A stretch of DNA of 5,487 bases from a virus: positions 1 to 5,487 of IMG/VR virus record IMGVR_UViG_3300045988_103061; one strand, given 5' to 3'. The notes beneath the pieces are model-generated. The model had not been told where the DNA came from, searched no databases, and saw only the letters and a list, made by a program, of their open reading frames with translations. Shown one piece after another: positions 1-5,487 of the stretch. Position 1 is the stretch's first letter, and every line of letters begins with the position of its first letter. A program made the translations under genes and the position numbers.

Positions 1-95
1 AGGCTTGCGCCGTGTTACAAAGATATGATATGAGCGGAGTGACCGGCAGCTTAGCACAGTCATACCGGCATAGCCGGTATATAAAAACAAAAAAG
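1..95. repeat. Terminal direct repeat (assembly redundancy of a circular genome). Positions 1-95 are identical to 5393-5487, giving a unit length of 5392 nt.
   Basis: Direct reading: 'aggcttgcgccgtgttacaaagatatg...ccggtatataaaaacaaaaaag' occurs at both ends and matches for all 95 nt available. The repeat lies in the non-coding region between the VP5-like ORF and VP3, so no gene is broken by the window edges. Confidence 0.95.
62..80. repeat. GC-rich hairpin ATACCGGC-ata-GCCGGTAT (8-bp perfect stem, 3-nt loop) in the main intergenic region. It lies directly 3' (mRNA sense) of the terminator T-tract.
   Basis: Seen directly: 62-69 'ataccggc' is the reverse complement of 73-80 'gccggtat'. A second copy sits inside the terminal redundancy at 5454-5472. 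Confidence 0.6.
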
Positions 96-121
96 GCGTC
101 CAACATTACGCTAGACGCCTT
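81..121 (-). terminator. Candidate rho-independent terminator on the gene (minus) strand, about 80 nt downstream of the last gene of the VP4-ORF92-VP5 block.
   Basis: Minus strand reads AAGGCGTC-(13-nt loop tagcgtaatgttg)-GACGCCTT followed by TTTTGTTTTTAT. The stem is + 93-100 paired with 114-121, and the T-tract is the reverse complement of + 81-92. Confidence 0.5.
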
Positions 122-157
122 AATTGCGTTGTGATATTACAACTTGCCTTGTTTAGC

Positions 158-186
158 ATTATACCACAACATGAAAGAGAAGGCAA
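158..186 (-). promoter_or_regulatory. Candidate sigma70-type promoter: -35 TTGCCT (4/6), 17-nt spacer, extended -10 TGGTATAAT. The -10 sits between arms of an 8-bp inverted repeat CTTGCCTT/AAGGCAAG (+143-150 / 180-187).
   Basis: The minus strand reads GCTTGCCTTCTCTTTCATGTTGTGGTATAATGCTAAACAAGGCAAG. The -10 plus TGn is the same 9-mer as in the stronger promoter at 792-820. It lies downstream of the VP5-like stop and upstream of the terminator and VP3. Confidence 0.35.
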
Positions 187-200
187 GCGAACGATTACAA

Positions 201-482
201 TTACATTTTAGCAGTATCCGGGAGGGGTGTCAAGAGTTCCGTGGCAGTAGACAAAAGCAAAGTGGGGTTTTGTGGGGAAAACACGCACGTTTTGTCGTCA
301 AACTCTCCGAGATACATCAGAACAAAGTCCTCGTGATAGTCATGGATAATATTGGAACGCTCCGGAGTAGACGGCTGGTTAACCATAATCTGAAATTGGC
401 GGATAGCCATAGCATTATTTTGCTGGGTAAAGGGCGGGTTCATCAACTCGCCCTTGCGATCATAAATACAATAAAGTTTCAT
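201..482 (-). CDS. VP5-like small non-structural protein (93 aa), true start ATG at 482. Gokushovirus ORF5/VP5 family is suspected from its pattern; its function in that family is unknown but possibly ssDNA synthesis or packaging.
   Basis: ORF track 201..491 is trimmed to the ATG at 482. That ATG is preceded by TTTAAGGAGTGATTTTT on the minus strand, a strong extended SD that contains the upstream gene's TGA stop. The protein MKLYCIYDRKGELMNPPFTQQNNAMAIRQFQIMVNQPSTPERSNIIHDYHEDFVLMYLGEFDD... fits my recollection of the VP5 pattern (F.V.D.K...PFF...N...A.R.F...VNDP...HPEDF.L..GEFDD). This is recall, not a search result. Confidence 0.6.
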   Translation of the reverse strand: MKLYCIYDRKGELMNPPFTQQNNAMAIRQFQIMVNQPSTPERSNIIHDYHEDFVLMYLGEFDDKTCVFSPQNPTLLLSTATELLTPLPDTAKM

Positions 483-487
483 AAAAA

Positions 488-766
488 TCACTCCTTAAAT
501 CTAAATGAGTCATCACGTGCAACAGACTTAAGAAAAAGTTTGAAATTGTGAAAACGATCAGACGGAACAATATAGAAAAAGCCGTCATAACAGAAAATAG
601 CATCATCATAGCGTCCATTCTCGCGTTTACAAGAATTAGCAGCACGATAGCGGATAGCTTGATTATAAGTAGAAAATACGAGATGACGAGGAATACGATT
701 AAGAACCTCATAAATACGTTGTTGAGATTGAAGGGATAAATTAGGATTAAAATAGTCTTTATACAT
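488..766 (-). CDS. Hypothetical basic, aromatic-rich 92-aa protein inserted between rep (VP4) and the VP5-like gene. I recognise no homology.
   Basis: ORF track 488..823 begins at TTG, so I trimmed it to ATG 766. That ATG is preceded by GTGAGGTAAGCAAT (SD GAGGT, 7-8 nt spacing) and lies about 20 nt downstream of a consensus promoter. The stop TGA at 490-488 sits inside the SD of the next gene (translational coupling). The protein has about 10 R and 5 K against 10 D/E and no hydrophobic segment. Confidence 0.65.
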   Translation of the reverse strand: MYKDYFNPNLSLQSQQRIYEVLNRIPRHLVFSTYNQAIRYRAANSCKRENGRYDDAIFCYDGFFYIVPSDRFHNFKLFLKSVARDDSFRFKE

Positions 767-791
767 ATTGCTTACCTCACTTTCTATATAT

Positions 792-820
792 ATTATACCA
801 TGAGATAAAGCAACTGTCAA
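792..820 (-). promoter_or_regulatory. Consensus sigma70 promoter with extended -10: TTGACA - 17 nt - TG-G-TATAAT. It drives the ORF92/VP5-like operon.
   Basis: The minus strand reads gttgTTGACAgttgctttatctcaTGgTATAATatatatag. The -35 is the reverse complement of + 815-820 'tgtcaa', the -10 is the reverse complement of + 792-797 'attata', and the TG is at + 799-800. Both hexamers match consensus perfectly, with a 17-nt spacer and a TGn motif. The predicted TSS is near +785, giving an ~20-nt leader with the SD. Confidence 0.65.
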
Positions 821-850
821 CAACTTTTTACAACTTTTTACAACTTTTAT
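821..850. repeat. Three tandem 10-bp units (CAACTTTTTA on +, TAAAAAGTTG on the gene strand) directly upstream of and continuous with the -35 element. These are phased A5 tracts and could be UP-element-like or a DNA-bending array.
   Basis: + 821-830 caacttttta, 831-840 caacttttta, 841-850 caacttttat. A fourth degenerate unit at 811-820, caactgtcaa, carries the -35. The VP4 stop codon (849-847) lies in the first unit. Confidence 0.8.
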
Positions 851-1803
851 AAACCTAAATTATCAAAATCTCGCTCAAATTGTTCCTGCCGGTGCTTCAG
901 AATCTTCTCCTTGGCTTCCAGCCTTTTGGTATCAACAACAATGGCAGCCTTTGCGTTATCCTGTTTATTTTGCTTGTATATACTATACCAAACGGGATTG
1001 CTGCGCTCAAAAAGTGATTGATAATAACGAGGGATCTTATACTTAGCTCCATTAATTGTTACGAAACCGAGCTTAAAAATATCATCAGAATAACGACTGA
1101 AATAATCTGCTCCAATACCAGGCTTAAGGGAACTGCCGACAAACTCCGGAGAAATACCTAAAGCGTCATACATACAGGCATTTTTGCCGGTCTGCTTTTT
1201 GAGGGAGTATTTAGCAACATAACGGGCACTCTCAAAAGTAACAGCTCCTACAGTATTGTAGCCATACGGCCAAAGACGCTCCAACGTGGGAGAACGGAAA
1301 AGATTATAGCCAGCTGTCAACGCCGAGACTTTGCGGACATCGTCAGGAAACCAACCAAAGCACAAAATATGATAGTGTGGACGGCAATTGAGATCGCCAT
1401 ACTCACCGCAACATAAAAAGCGGATCTTAGAATTATCATGATAATCCAAATAACGGCGTAACCGCTTAAAGAATAACTGCAAGTGATCACGATGCAGCGA
1501 GTGATCAGCTGGTAAACAATCGTCATTGTAAGTAAGCGTTATAAAACAGTTATGCAAGTGCAGCTTAGCCTCATGCACGCAGCGTATAGCCCAGTCATTA
1601 GCTTTATCCAAACGGCAGCCTAAACACTGACCGCAGGGAACAACAACAGCATAATTATTAGCTAGCTCACTTTTAGCAATTTCAAGAGATTTGCCAGCAA
1701 GGTCACGATAAGAAACAAAATTAGATAGCTCATACTTACCATTAGCATTTGGAACAGCAGAGCGTTTAGCAAATAAAGGATGAAGGCAAGTCATAATACA
1801 CAC
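847..1803 (-). CDS. VP4: VP4 rolling-circle replication initiator protein (HUH endonuclease, phiX174 gpA-like), 318 aa.
   Basis: RCR motifs are visible in the translation: FITLTY (motif 1), HYHILCF (motif 2, HUH) and YVAKYSLKK (motif 3 with two Tyr spaced like phiX174 gpA YVAKYVNKK). An N-terminal CxxC...CGQCLGCR zinc-finger-like cluster is typical of gokushovirus VP4. An alternative ATG lies 3 codons in (1794). Confidence 0.95.
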   Translation of the reverse strand: MCIMTCLHPLFAKRSAVPNANGKYELSNFVSYRDLAGKSLEIAKSELANNYAVVVPCGQCLGCRLDKANDWAIRCVHEAKLHLHNCFITLTYNDDCLPADHSLHRDHLQLFFKRLRRYLDYHDNSKIRFLCCGEYGDLNCRPHYHILCFGWFPDDVRKVSALTAGYNLFRSPTLERLWPYGYNTVGAVTFESARYVAKYSLKKQTGKNACMYDALGISPEFVGSSLKPGIGADYFSRYSDDIFKLGFVTINGAKYKIPRYYQSLFERSNPVWYSIYKQNKQDNAKAAIVVDTKRLEAKEKILKHRQEQFERDFDNLGL

Positions 1804-1809
1804 ATCTTT

Positions 1810-1923
1810 CTACATGCGGATACCACCACGCATGTTTCTTGATTTAAGATTTTTAAGCCGTGGAACTGCATGATTGCGAAAGTTCCGGCGAGAAGCACCA
1901 CGGGAAATTTTACTTCTTTTCAT
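1810..1923 (-). CDS. 37-aa arginine/lysine-rich DNA-binding (DNA-condensing) protein, analogous to gokushovirus ORF8 and phiX174 protein J. It is not in the supplied ORF track.
   Basis: Hand translation of the minus strand from ATG 1923 to TAG 1812-1810 gives MKRSKISRGASRRNFRNHAVPRLKNLKSRNMRGGIRM (12 R/K in 37 aa). CTTAAGGAGCAAGAAAA precedes the ATG (SD AAGGAG, 8-nt spacer). There is an in-frame TAA 4 codons upstream. The stop lies 6 nt before the VP4 ATG. Confidence 0.75.
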   Translation of the reverse strand: MKRSKISRGASRRNFRNHAVPRLKNLKSRNMRGGIRM

Positions 1924-1961
1924 TTTTCTTGCTCCTTAAGTACAAACCAAGGCAAAGGATA

Positions 1962-2231
1962 TTAAGAATTTTTTCCCAAAAAGCGGGAGTAGCTTTTTTC
2001 TTCCGCCTGCGCTGCAGCTGCGTGGCGAAAGCCATTTACATCGTCAGTACCTCTTTTCTGCATATTGATAAGATCATCCTGCATAGCCAGAGAAATAGAT
2101 TTAAGACTTGCGCTGCCTTCACGATTATATTTGCCGGTGCGAAACATATCGATGAAATCGACAACATCTTGAATAAAAGGAATTACAGTAGAAACAAGAA
2201 AAGTCAAAATAGCAGTAGTTTTGTTTGACAT
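1962..2231 (-). CDS. Hypothetical 89-aa membrane-anchored protein with an N-terminal transmembrane helix and a polar C-terminus. It is a candidate lysis or membrane-targeting accessory protein.
   Basis: The ATG at 2231 is preceded by AAATGAGGTGATTAATT. Its SD GAGGTGAT overlaps the VP2 TGA stop, an 11-nt gap that implies coupling. Residues ~6-24 (TAILTFLVSTVIPFIQDVV) are hydrophobic and the rest is charged or polar. It fills the only otherwise non-coding stretch on the coding strand between VP2 and the DNA-binding protein. Confidence 0.6.
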   Translation of the reverse strand: MSNKTTAILTFLVSTVIPFIQDVVDFIDMFRTGKYNREGSASLKSISLAMQDDLINMQKRGTDDVNGFRHAAAAQAEEKSYSRFLGKNS

Positions 2232-2242
2232 AATTAATCACC

Positions 2243-3043
2243 TCATTTAGAAAAATAACTAGCAATGCTAGAAAACAAACGATTACCAGCACGAGCAAGA
2301 GTATTCCAAGGCAGTCCGTCGTCAGACAATCCAAGATTTTTGTAGTCAGAATTACGAGAAATTTTATAATCATAATCAGCTTTAGCAACACTAGAAAGCT
2401 GCGAATTATAAGCAGCAGTACTATTGGCAGCATTACCTTGAGCATACATCATAGCAGCTTGAGCAGGCATAACTACATTCATCATATACTCTTGGGCAAG
2501 TTTTTGAGAATCAATATATTCTCCTTGCTTTTTAGCATTTAAAAGATTCTGTTTAACCAAAGCCAAATTGTCATTGTAAGAATCAGCAGCTAACTTATTA
2601 GCCAAAGAAATACCATAAGATTCAGCATCGAATTTTTTAGCACTAGATCCAGCTAAAATAGTTTGAGCAGCTAAATTTTTTATTTGTTCGTCGCTCATTT
2701 TTTCAGCGATAGCAGCTTGACGATTAGCAGCTTTAGCAGAGTTACCAGCAGCAGTAGCAGACATACCGGCAGTCACACCTTCACCAATATTATAATTTGC
2801 GGATAAGGCAGAAGCTCCATTAATAGAACCGCCAATACCTTGAGTAGCAGCAAGCATAGGGTTTAATCCAGCTTTTTGCATATCTTCCATTGCCCATTGA
2901 TAACGATGCTGATAGTTATAAACATTACGCTGATTAGCTACAGTTGCAGCATGACGAGCAGCAGAGTTACTAAGAGCACCACTAATGATAGACGAAATAC
3001 CACCAGTAACAGCTCCAAGAGCAGATCCGAGAAAGGAACCCAT
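2243..3043 (-). CDS. VP2: VP2 minor capsid / DNA pilot protein, 266 aa.
   Basis: It has the Gly/Ala/Ser-rich N-terminus MGSFLGSALGAVTGGISSIISGALS followed by ...YQWAMEDMQKAGLNPMLAA, the typical gokushovirus VP2 signature. It is positioned immediately 3' of VP1 with a 12-nt gap. The SD TTTAAGGAGTGATTTAA precedes the ATG and contains the VP1 TAA stop. Confidence 0.85.
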   Translation of the reverse strand: MGSFLGSALGAVTGGISSIISGALSNSAARHAATVANQRNVYNYQHRYQWAMEDMQKAGLNPMLAATQGIGGSINGASALSANYNIGEGVTAGMSATAAGNSAKAANRQAAIAEKMSDEQIKNLAAQTILAGSSAKKFDAESYGISLANKLAADSYNDNLALVKQNLLNAKKQGEYIDSQKLAQEYMMNVVMPAQAAMMYAQGNAANSTAAYNSQLSSVAKADYDYKISRNSDYKNLGLSDDGLPWNTLARAGNRLFSSIASYFSK

Positions 3044-3055
3044 TTAAATCACTCC

Positions 3056-4684
3056 TTAAAAATGTCCCATCATGCCGGGAAGACCATACATAGGCATAGG
3101 ACGAATACATTTAAGGTTAAATTTAACATCGAGCAAGAAATGAGGATAAGACGGAACAGCGACAACACGGCTAATAGGCGGATGATCTTGAATAAATTCA
3201 TCCGAGAGAGTAGGCAGAGCAACAAATTTTTGAGAAAGATGCCAAATATCCAAAGGCTCTTTATAAGTTGAGCGGAATTGACCTGTGATCAAAGAAGGCT
3301 TATAGCGATATTCTGCATATCTCTCTTGATAGCCGAAAACTTTTTTATCGTCATCATTGCCTTGGCAATAAATTTCAATATTTTGTATAGACTGCTCGCC
3401 TAAATGAGCAAAAGAAGGCCAATAGAAATCAAGAACATCCGAACGCAGCCACATCTTATTGATTCCTTGCTGATAAGTAAGATCAGCACGGACATTGATT
3501 AAGCCGATAACATAACCAAATTCCGAGAAAGATTTTGTAAATGCATGATAACGCTGTGCATTTAATCCATATGCAGCCAAGTTACCTTGAGGAGTAGTAG
3601 AATCTGTAGAACTTGTTTGCGTAACCGGGTTAATATTCATCATAGAACTATGAGAACCGAGGAACTCCGGACGTTGCAAACGAGCATCGGGGTTAGTTAC
3701 ACCGAAATGAGCTTGAAGTTTTTCCGTATATCGAGTACCACCACGGGCATCAATCTCATAATATCTCTGGAGCATAAACGCTTGACGAAGAGAATTAATA
3801 GTAGCAGCAGAAGCATTAGTTAAATCAGCATACAAAGTAGAATTTCGGCTAGCATTATCACCAGCAGAATTACCAATCATAACTTGCCAATTATTAGCAG
3901 CATTAACCCAAAGAACTTTAGGATCGCCGTCAGGTGTCATTACATTGATACGATTACTACCAGCATAAGGCTCTGCAACAATAGGAGCACTACCACCTAA
4001 TGGAAGATCAACAGCAGGACCCTTTTGCGGCCAAGGAAGAGCACCTGTAAAATAATCATATCTCTTGCCACGAGGAGCAGGATCATACCAATTTTTTACA
4101 CCGGACGGCAAACCATAATTAAGATTAGCAGTAGATTGTCCCATAGGTTCAAGAACTGTGTTAGTTTCGCCTTTAGACACCTTAACAGATTTTTGTAGGT
4201 TCTCATCACGAAACCACTCGTTCCATATAGTCCAGTAGCAGCGGAACGGCAAGCAGTTAACGGAAACATTATTAAAAGTACCGGAAGCGCAAGCTATACC
4301 CATATAATCGGGCAGCTTATTAGTCATATCACCGGTAAGGGATACGGTAGGAACAAGATAATCTGTAGAATCTTCGGGATTTTCCTGCTCACCACAGAGA
4401 TTTACCCATTTATCATATACGAGCCTTGAAGGAACGAAGAAGAAAAAAGACTCAATATAGATGTTGTCCATGAAAGGAACAACAGGAGTAGCCAAACGGC
4501 AAAACTCCACAGGATTTAAAGTAAAAGTATCGCCTGGAATAACTTCATCCACGAAATAAGGAATCAGCTGGCCTTCGTTAAAAGTAGTTTTATAAACATG
4601 ACTTCTATCAAAGACAGAGCGACGAATATTAGCTTGTGGAATCATCGCAAAATGCGACTGATTAACACGGATATTTCGAGCCAT
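3056..4684 (-). CDS. VP1: VP1 major capsid protein (F-like jelly-roll), 542 aa.
   Basis: The N-terminus MARNIRVNQSHFAMIPQANIRRSVFDRSHVYKTTFNEGQLIPYFVDEVIPGDTFTL...LATPVVPFMDNIYIESFFFFVP carries the canonical Microviridae/gokushovirus MCP motifs (SHF, IRRS.FD.SH..KTTF, EV.PGDTF). Its size is typical for gokushovirus VP1. SD TTAAGGAGTTTTTATT precedes the ATG. Confidence 0.97.
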   Translation of the reverse strand: MARNIRVNQSHFAMIPQANIRRSVFDRSHVYKTTFNEGQLIPYFVDEVIPGDTFTLNPVEFCRLATPVVPFMDNIYIESFFFFVPSRLVYDKWVNLCGEQENPEDSTDYLVPTVSLTGDMTNKLPDYMGIACASGTFNNVSVNCLPFRCYWTIWNEWFRDENLQKSVKVSKGETNTVLEPMGQSTANLNYGLPSGVKNWYDPAPRGKRYDYFTGALPWPQKGPAVDLPLGGSAPIVAEPYAGSNRINVMTPDGDPKVLWVNAANNWQVMIGNSAGDNASRNSTLYADLTNASAATINSLRQAFMLQRYYEIDARGGTRYTEKLQAHFGVTNPDARLQRPEFLGSHSSMMNINPVTQTSSTDSTTPQGNLAAYGLNAQRYHAFTKSFSEFGYVIGLINVRADLTYQQGINKMWLRSDVLDFYWPSFAHLGEQSIQNIEIYCQGNDDDKKVFGYQERYAEYRYKPSLITGQFRSTYKEPLDIWHLSQKFVALPTLSDEFIQDHPPISRVVAVPSYPHFLLDVKFNLKCIRPMPMYGLPGMMGHF

Positions 4685-4805
4685 AATAAAAACTCCTTAA
4701 TTTTAATAAACGACCGAAAAGCACGAGAACGGCATTTTCGTTATCAAATCAGAAGGGAATTAAAAATAAATAAAAGGCTTATTTTTAAGGTTTTTTCTGA
4801 TTTTG

Positions 4806-4853
4806 TGTCACCTTGACCAGTTACTATCAAGTAGGTAACTGGTCAAGGTGACA
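4806..4853. repeat. Perfect 19-bp inverted repeat with a 10-nt loop (hairpin) in the VP3-VP1 intergenic region.
   Basis: + 4806-4824 tgtcaccttgaccagttac is the exact reverse complement of 4835-4853 gtaactggtcaaggtgaca, with loop tatcaagtag. An adjacent A/T-only 10-bp stem lies at 4760-4769/4779-4788, followed by T6 on the + strand. Confidence 0.9.
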
Positions 4854-4891
4854 GGGTTATTATTCTACATAGGTGAATATTAGCATATAAG

Positions 4892-5335
4892 TTATTTTTG
4901 CTCTAAATTAGGCTCTCCTGCTACCGGAGTGACAGGTTCTACCGGACTATCTACAATAGCCTTCTGTTTTAGGCCTAACTCCTCTAGTCTAGCAACAACC
5001 TTTTCATCAGTAGAAGTCAAAGCATCAAGCAGCTGCCTTGGATCATTACCGAATTCGGCACGAACACTGGAAGGCAAATCTGCAAACTCTGCATTGACAT
5101 TAGCAACGAGGTTGCAGGCCGTTTCATAATCCGGCAAAAGAGTGCTATCACCATATTGAAGAGTAGCCGGATCGTGTGCGCCAACAGAATCTACAATACC
5201 GGTAGTATTAAAATTAGCAATAATGTGATGAATATCACACTCTTCAGCAAAGGTCTGATCAGCAAGCGAAGGCTGCGTAATTTCTACGTAAGGTTTTGGC
5301 GGTTGTTCATCATAAAGCGTATAAAACTTAGCCAT
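4892..5335 (-). CDS. VP3: VP3 internal scaffolding protein, 147 aa, acidic.
   Basis: The pattern ...PSLADQTFAEECDIHHIIANFNTTG...QYGD...PDYETA...AEFADLPSSVRAEFGNDPRQLLDAL...LGL matches the gokushovirus VP3 signature as I recall it (PSLT.QSF..ECDIN.I...TG...YGD...DY..A...F..LP..R..F.N.P..L). It is acidic overall. SD AAGGAG lies 10 nt upstream of the ATG. This is the first gene after the main intergenic region. Confidence 0.8.
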   Translation of the reverse strand: MAKFYTLYDEQPPKPYVEITQPSLADQTFAEECDIHHIIANFNTTGIVDSVGAHDPATLQYGDSTLLPDYETACNLVANVNAEFADLPSSVRAEFGNDPRQLLDALTSTDEKVVARLEELGLKQKAIVDSPVEPVTPVAGEPNLEQK

Positions 5336-5487
5336 AGCTTATTATCTCCTTTCTTTACCCGACAAGGCACGAATAACGATTTTTGTAAGCGTAGGCTTGC
5401 GCCGTGTTACAAAGATATGATATGAGCGGAGTGACCGGCAGCTTAGCACAGTCATACCGGCATAGCCGGTATATAAAAACAAAAAAG

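Follow-up and report, generated by a model that had tools for sequence, protein, structure and literature searches.

The stretch of viral DNA considered here (hereafter the window; 5,487 nt, positions 1 to 5,487 of IMG/VR record IMGVR_UViG_3300045988_103061) is, judging by its genes, the genome of a gokushovirus-like member of the Microviridae, and these genes lie on the minus strand. Its first 95 nt (1-95) are an exact direct repeat of 5393-5487; this terminal repeat is an assembly overlap, and the true genome is circular and 5392 nt long. Between the open reading frame (ORF) of the VP3 scaffold protein (4892-5335, minus strand; Chlamy_scaf) and that of the VP1 capsid protein (3056-4684, minus strand; Phage_F, E = 4.5e-174) lies a spacer of 207 nt (4685-4891). 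A hairpin within this spacer (4806-4853, minus strand) is the subject of what follows, together with the enzyme proposed to act on it, the rolling-circle initiator Rep/VP4, whose gene occupies 847-1803 on the minus strand (Pfam REP_ORF2-G2P, E = 9e-23). Microviridae package the mRNA-sense strand, and the strand on which the hairpin has to be read is therefore the minus strand of the window. Read in this direction, it consists of a 5' arm (4853-4835, TGTCACCTTGACCAGTTAC), a loop (4834-4825, CTACTTGATA) and a 3' arm (4824-4806, GTAACTGGTCAAGGTGACA).

A repeat search places the two arms at 4806-4824 and 4835-4853, with 19 nt each, 100% complementarity and 10 nt between them, which confirms the 19-bp perfect stem described in an earlier, sequence-only reading of this DNA. 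The same reading spoke of a 48-nt perfect palindrome; this holds for the 19-bp inverted repeat but not for the element as a whole, as the 10-nt loop is non-palindromic. By simple arithmetic, the expected number of perfect 19-bp inverted repeats within 200 nt is about 4e-6 per 5.5 kb. Folded as DNA, the 48-nt hairpin has an energy of -20.8 kcal/mol, and when both strands were scanned in 60-nt segments, the segment holding the hairpin had the lowest score of all (-21; runner-up -15.7, mean -3.9, standard deviation 2.6), so that the earlier description of it as the most stable structure in the genome was correct. The whole 207-nt spacer gives z = -9.3 as DNA and -7.9 as RNA, none of 200 shuffles being equally stable. 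On the gene strand the hairpin is followed by CACAAAATCAGAAAAAACC and not by a U-tract, and, as had been pointed out, it is not a simple intrinsic terminator; no minus-strand terminator is called anywhere in the spacer, where the sole call lies on the non-coding strand and has a weak tail, and this candidate was rejected.

The loop decamer CTACTTGATA (4825-4834, minus strand), when read on the gene strand, shares 9 of its 10 bases with CAACTTG^ATA, the cleavage decamer of phiX174, and it is the predicted recognition and cleavage sequence of Rep, with the nick expected between G4828 and A4827. In phiX174, protein A (Tyr343, Tyr347) cuts and religates the G4305-A4306 bond within the 30-nt ori(+) (bioRxiv 10.64898/2026.07.25.740675), and the phiX174 RefSeq record carries its annotation of the viral-strand origin (rep_origin) at A4306, in the sequence ccccCAACTTG^ATATTAATAACACTATAGACCAC. 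Within the whole window, both strands included, the heptamers ACTTGAT and GTGACAC occur only once each, in both cases inside the hairpin and on the gene strand. The layout of the phiX174 origin is that of a recognition sequence, a spacer and a 3' binding ('key') sequence, together spanning about 30 nt. By analogy with this layout, the conserved box GGTGACAC (4805-4812, minus strand), which begins 16 nt 3' of the predicted nick, is proposed to be the binding site of Rep, that is, the counterpart of the 'key'.

The Rep protein of the window itself carries the motifs FITLTY, RPHYHIL (HUH) and ARYVAKYSLKKQTG (YVAKYSLKK), all of which vary little or not at all among 20 homologues whose identity goes down to ~41%. 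It thereby combines the HUH motif with the two tyrosines (YxxxY) that characterize initiators of the phiX174 A family; phiX174 A itself reads GFYVAKYVNKKSD (GFYVAKYVNKK) at its catalytic tyrosines (Tyr343/347), and BLASTP aligns the two proteins over motifs I and II with E = 1e-6. According to Kazlauskas et al. (PMC6668415), Rep is monophyletic across Gokushovirinae and Bullavirinae.

How far is the hairpin shared with other microviruses? A blastn search with the 207-nt spacer retrieved 32 Microviridae records, all of which match only at spacer positions ~32-101, where the hairpin lies, with ~78-93% identity; no other part of the spacer has DNA matches in these Microviridae genomes, which are otherwise unalignable. 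Among 15 close relatives, whose Rep proteins are 85-96% identical to that of the window, all retain 19 or 20 perfect pairs, and three pairs of the stem show compensatory changes (C:G to A:T in L027, C:G to T:A in L024 and two pairs at the top of the stem in L031). A more distant sample comprised 80 IMG/VR genomes chosen solely via Rep alignment (35-47% identical in Rep) and each turned so that rep reads along the plus strand. On the rep-sense strand, 56 of these 80 genomes have a hairpin that contains 7 or more perfect pairs and carries ACTTG in the loop, compared with 7 on the antisense strand; with 60 permutations of the letters of ACTTG as a control, the median was 4, and with the exception of ACTTG itself and of CTTGA, which overlaps it, all stayed at 12 or below. 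From 59 diverse copies of the element a covariance model was built; it scores the window hairpin at 70.4 bits on the minus strand, finds the element at E <= 1e-5 in 78 of the 80 genomes, 75 times on the rep-sense strand, and has no match in the other two. The 75 rep-sense matches take in 19 non-seed genomes with loop variants such as TACTAGAT, CTCTTGAT or AACTTGAT. The three variants, the last of them being the phiX174 form, were seen across L050, L064, L065, L068, L071, L077 and L097; L044, L057, L060, L093, L100, L106 and L108; and L080 and L101.

The alignment of the 59 diverse genomes bears on what exactly is being conserved. Over the 19-pair structure, 68.6% of the cells form standard pairs, as against ~33% however far the 3' partner is slid; covariation scores 0.309 (<= 0.088 when slid, with 0 of 500 shuffles reaching the observed value), and 124 cells are changed on both sides, compared with 46 in shuffles. 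This covariation is carried by the ten inner pairs, one of which is CG in 28 genomes, AU in 21, GC in 3, UA in 2 and unpaired in 4, while another is AU in 33 and CG in 18. The outer seven pairs, made by the GGTGACA box with its 5' complement, are formed only in the window lineage and a few others, and in most relatives the stem measures only 7-12 bp. The 5' arm changes freely provided that pairing is kept, and the asymmetric centre is the most conserved part of the element: in the loop, CTTG and the T of GAT are invariant and both A's of ACTTGAT are at least 90% conserved. The TGACA box, 15-16 nt 3' of the predicted nick, has an invariant T and G followed by an ACA that is at least 90% conserved, whether the box is paired or unpaired (it is conserved though unpaired in L003, L007 and L008, for instance). 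Taken together, the invariant loop and box, the covariation of the inner pairs and the conservation of the box where it is unpaired indicate that selection is on three things, namely the loop sequence, a hairpin of at least ~10 bp and the sequence of the 3' box; judging from the same alignment, the window lineage has lengthened its 5' arm so that the box also pairs. In alignment A2 the row of L001 is placed 16 nt too far upstream and lacks its 3' end, by which the counts are not materially changed. The conservation and covariation check called for by the sequence-only reading has thus come out in favour of the element: the hairpin is kept and its stem covaries. A role of the GTGACA box as a -35 promoter element was considered and rejected, there being no conserved -10 element after the box in the 59-genome alignment and no gene-strand promoter called in the spacer.

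This pattern of conservation also speaks to the notion that a long perfect inverted repeat is simply a protein-binding site in double-stranded DNA, either the operator of a dimeric regulator or a XerCD/dif-like attP recombination site, some gokushoviruses being known to integrate at dif via a phage dif-like motif (PMC7062461). A symmetric operator would conserve both of its half-sites and not its centre, whereas it is the asymmetric centre that is most conserved here. A dif site has the geometry 11-6-11 (28 bp), as opposed to 19-10-19 in the hairpin, and the E. coli prophage carries the element in its interior, between VP3 and VP1; the dif motif of the E. coli gokushovirus group is located between VP2 and VP5, at the prophage boundary (PMC7062461). 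On account of the geometry and the internal prophage position a dif/XerCD site was rejected, and binding of a protein to the duplex repeat, taken as a whole, is barely credible as an explanation.

In 73 genomes the element is always intergenic, and the next gene downstream is rep in 61 of them (at a median of 187 nt from the nick) and, as in the window, VP1 in the remaining 12. This distribution has consequences for the suggestion, also made in the sequence-only reading, that the hairpin acts at the RNA level within a polycistronic VP3-VP1 mRNA, as an RNase III site, a 3' stabiliser or an attenuator setting the VP3:VP1 ratio. The 19-bp duplex would form in RNA too, it sits between two genes of the same strand, and the same reading added, in a statement taken over here unchecked, that intergenic hairpins of phiX174 stabilise mRNAs. 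However, an element that in 61 of 73 relatives precedes rep instead of separating VP3 from VP1 is out of place for such a task, the 7-12 bp stems of most relatives are too short for RNase III, and conservation peaks in the unpaired loop and in the often-unpaired box. Moreover, the hairpin has no U-tract, whereas a canonical intrinsic terminator with a T-tract stands on the gene strand at 93-121 (read 121-93), where AAGGCGTCTAGCGTAATGTTGGACGCCTT is followed by the tail TTTTGTTTTT. Nor does any Rfam family rise above noise (the sub-threshold hits include mir-582, with 22.8 bits against a gathering score of 84), and a known RNA family was rejected as a candidate. Hence the proposed stabiliser, RNase III and attenuator roles find no support, and action at the RNA level as the main function of the hairpin seems very improbable to us.

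The element extends to named phages and to prophages. Chp2 carries it in the form AGCGTATAACAG-tctACTTGATc-CTGTTATACGCT-aggtga, phiMH2K and SpV4 carry it with the loop core ACTTGTT, and Gokushovirus WZ-2015a has it in the VP3-VP1 spacer. Two deeper-branching microviruses give weak model matches, and a 12-bp hairpin that has the loop CTCTTGAT but lacks the box occurs in one Alpavirinae-like genome. In the distant Tortoise microvirus 58 (L136 2674-2710; VP1 25% identical), the 12-bp hairpin is perfect and intergenic, with the loop ctcCTCTTGATat and without a GTGACAC box. The nick-in-loop design may extend beyond the gokushovirus-like groups. In gokushovirus prophages of E. coli, the element reads TGGCACAGT-gccttACTTGATgta-ACTGTGCCA-GGTGACACC and lies between a VP3-like gene and VP1, that is, in the same position as in the window; the prophage in the chromosome of E. 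coli strain E9 (NZ_CP104500, L131 4998-5041) carries it, and 7 of 5426 complete E. coli genomes match. The origin pattern was also seen on large chromosomal contigs of Natronospirillum, Marinomonas and Intestinirhabdus and of Alphaproteobacteria and Ardenticatenaceae metagenome-assembled genomes (MAGs) (L122, L123, L127, L116 and L130), L130 giving no model match at E <= 0.001; these contigs suggest that gokushovirus-like prophages are integrated in diverse bacteria.

What, then, would a microvirus do with a phiX174-type nick site displayed on a hairpin? We consider it probable, at roughly 80%, that the hairpin is the viral-strand (+) rolling-circle origin of this gokushovirus-like microvirus, in which a nick site of the phiX174 type is placed on an extrudable hairpin. 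The evidence assembled above likewise supports the earlier claim that the hairpin is functional and acts at the DNA level in a single-stranded DNA phage. According to this model, the inverted repeat would extrude as a cruciform in the supercoiled replicative form and would fold in displaced or packaged single strands, in either case exposing the loop decamer CTACTTGATA as single-stranded DNA. Rep, a phiX174 A-type HUH endonuclease with two catalytic tyrosines, would dock on the GGTGACAC box in the 3' arm and cut the gene-sense strand at ACTTG^AT (4828|4827, minus strand), becoming covalently bound to the 5' end, and the free 3'-OH would prime rolling-circle synthesis. After one round, the regenerated hairpin would be cut and religated by the second tyrosine, whereupon a circular genome would be released for packaging. 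Cleavage at the ACTTG^AT bond, cruciform extrusion and binding to the Rep box are what we infer from these comparisons, with the steps from cleavage onward modelled on homology.

An origin of replication had in fact been among the first suggestions for this hairpin, and to that extent the suggestion stands; the kind of origin then put forward, a complementary-strand or primase site, is not favoured by a loop that equals the phiX174 A decamer at 9/10 positions, by the 3' box and by strand specificity in 75 of 78 genomes. In the complementary-strand (minus) scenario, host primase, PriA or RNA polymerase would prime the second strand at the hairpin, as happens at the G4 origin or the phiX174 n' site. 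A very stable intergenic hairpin on the packaged-sense strand would suit this purpose well, every microvirus needs a site of such a kind, and the role has been proposed, with reservations, for conserved hairpins of tiny microviruses (PMC9865509). On the other hand, a site serving host factors would not be expected to retain the phiX174 Rep decamer across phages of Chlamydia, Spiroplasma, Bdellovibrio and E. coli as well as gut and aquatic phages, and the combination of an asymmetric conserved loop with a 3' box suits a phage-encoded enzyme. Furthermore, two other hairpins of the spacer, which show compensatory changes as well, are equally good or better candidates for such a site. As the principal function of the hairpin, complementary-strand priming is therefore rather unlikely in our estimation, although it may be an additional (dual) function.

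The first of these two, hairpin 2 (4746-4803, minus strand), is predicted to be composite: an outer helix pairs 4803-4795 with 4754-4746, and an inner A/T stem pairs ~4786-4778 with 4770-4762. The neighbouring 10-bp A/T stem of the sequence-only reading (4760-4788) is real, with arms at 4760-4769 and 4779-4788 that are 100% complementary and 9 nt apart, but it is only the inner part of this longer structure. In 7 of the 15 close relatives, a joint switch from CA/TG to AC/GT has taken place at two neighbouring pairs of the outer helix; the inner A/T stem shows some breaks and no compensatory change among them. Hairpin 3 (4715-4740, minus strand; CGAAAATGCCG...CGTGCTTTTCG) is situated just upstream of the ribosome-binding site of VP1, and among the same 15 relatives one of its pairs is G:C in 7 and A:T in 8, while another changes from G:C to C:G in 2. 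Hairpins 2 and 3 are better candidates than the hairpin at 4806-4853 for a complementary-strand origin, or alternatively for control of VP1 expression.

Several observations weigh against a viral-strand origin, or at least against too literal a comparison with phiX174. The phiX174 site lacks an inverted repeat and is part of gene A (in G4, too, the origin lies within the initiator gene), whereas the present element is intergenic and offers its decamer in a loop closed by a covarying stem. Outside the decamer, 8/20 positions agree with the 30-nt phiX174 origin, which is not significant, and because of this low positional identity the resemblance claimed here is one of layout, with no claim to homology over the full 30-mer. 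The covariance model has no match in phiX174, as is the case for four other distant genomes. The predicted position of the nick rests on homology with phiX174, and the loop is not uniform, given that the variants TACTAGAT, CTCTTGAT and ACTTGTT exist. The hairpin may, in addition, have a second role in the packaged strand or in mRNA. Finally, in 3 of 78 genomes the whole module is opposite to the strand of rep and VP1 (L085 6754-6827 and 2046-2118, L092 2399-2472, L109 2235-2308), which one would not expect of a strand-specific origin, except if these phages package the opposite strand or their contigs were assembled wrongly. It could be either misassembly or a real inversion that flips the nicked and the packaged strand; in L092, the sole inverted case that was read, the inversion takes in the small hairpin upstream.

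That small hairpin has counterparts elsewhere. In the window, an A/T-rich one is predicted to fold directly 5' of the origin hairpin (4861-4879, minus strand); it is invariant in close relatives and hence uninformative on covariation. Among 52 diverse genomes, 25 have a small hairpin, mostly G+C-rich, formed by the 18 nt that directly precede the core helix on its 5' side (for example L045 55-69, L094 1566-1582 and L098 2212-2226); its loop measures 3-5 nt, and its stem sequence differs between genomes. The mean minimum free energy of these 5'-flank hairpins is -2.2 kcal/mol, compared with -0.8 for shuffles.

It is conceivable, if so far doubtful enough that we put it forward tentatively, that the module is the viral-strand origin common to essentially all gokushovirus-like microviruses: a portable unit of ~45-75 nt (covarying stem, loop yACTTGAT and GTGACAC box), homologous to the phiX174 origin, that has moved between the spacers preceding rep and VP1 and has occasionally been inverted. 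Should this be true, the ancestral microvirus origin would have been a hairpin that was lost by the Bullavirinae, and packaging of the mRNA-complementary strand may occur in some microviruses. A full-text literature search returned no description of a gokushovirus viral-strand origin, although an earlier remark is possible elsewhere, e.g. in the genome papers of Chp2, phiMH2K or SpV4; the paper on E. coli gokushoviruses never uses the words origin, hairpin or intergenic (PMC7062461). We rate the novelty as lying in a phiX174-type nick site that is carried on a hairpin, as in most other HUH-Rep replicons, which makes for a useful annotation and for no surprise in principle.

The practical value of such a signature would nevertheless be considerable, gokushoviruses and their relatives being among the most abundant single-stranded DNA phages of gut and aquatic viromes. 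By means of it, thousands of metagenomic genomes of microviruses could be numbered from a natural zero point and assigned a strand, the signature would make the packaged strand predictable from sequence alone, and it would define a minimal cis element for gokushovirus phagemids or replicons. The E. coli gokushovirus prophages, with the same element in their VP3-VP1 spacer, offer a tractable test system.

As for the remainder of the window, an ORF of 266 aa is found at 2243-3043 on the minus strand, and the terminator at 121-93 is followed by a perfect 8-bp hairpin (62-80, minus strand; ATACCGGC-TAT-GCCGGTAT). Two sigma-70 promoters, each with an extended -10 TG, are located at 792-820 and 205-233 (minus strand) and read, in this order, TTGACA-17-TATAAT (12/12, consensus) and TTGACA-17-TAAAAT (11/12, near consensus), and VP1 is preceded by an AAGGAG ribosome-binding site; these signals point to a host that uses classical promoters and Shine-Dalgarno sequences. 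When 50,697 phage records were searched by whole-genome megablast, four short matches were all that came up, and for that reason named close relatives are lacking; the best VP1 match, at 66%, is Gokushovirus WZ-2015a. A stand-alone contig of 5535 nt (L120, SFFE01000042.1) is ~87% identical to the window over ~5.2 kb and has been binned in a Clostridiales MAG, which provides a weak hint as to the host of the phage.

How does the element relate to the origins described to date? It shares with the complementary-strand origin of G4 and the n' (PriA) site of phiX174, both in the F-G intergenic region, the property of being a stable intergenic hairpin on the packaged strand; it differs in that those sites serve host priming proteins and contain no Rep cleavage motif, and no priming-related feature was identified here. 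The reekeekee- and roodoodooviruses have intergenic hairpins by rep with a conserved loop and compensatory stem changes, which were tentatively tied to minus-strand initiation (PMC9865509); in a comparison made by description only, a difference is that no phiX174-like cleavage motif was reported for them.

The viral-strand origin of phiX174 and G4 has more in common with the hairpin. The decamer is nearly identical (CTACTTGATA here and CAACTTGATA in phiX174), the packaged strand is gene-sense, and the initiators are homologous, with HUH and YVAKY..KK. In both, a conserved block is situated 16-17 nt 3' of the nick (GGTGACAC here, and GACCAC at 17 nt in phiX174). Exposure of the phiX174 origin depends on supercoiling and on its A/T-rich spacer. 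In contrast to the A/T-rich tract of phiX174, the spacer of the present element is its stem.

The element also resembles the nonanucleotide stem-loops of circoviruses, geminiviruses and nanoviruses and the double-strand origins of pT181/pMV158-type plasmids, all of which have the nick site in the loop of an inverted repeat, compensatory pairing, and a Rep-binding sequence beside or in the stem; here, too, the nick motif occupies the loop, pairing has been kept in evolution, and the element is near rep in most genomes. The resemblance does not extend to the motifs themselves: the nick motif is ACTTG^AT and not of the TAGTATT^AC type, the loop does not conform to the (T/n)A(G/T)TATT^AC pattern of circular Rep-encoding single-stranded (CRESS) DNA origins, a single conserved box takes the place of iterated repeats, none of which flank the stem, and the Rep, a two-tyrosine protein of the phiX174 A family, lacks a helicase domain. 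An origin signature composed in this manner would tie the classical biochemistry of the phiX174 origin to the hairpin origins of most other HUH-Rep replicons.

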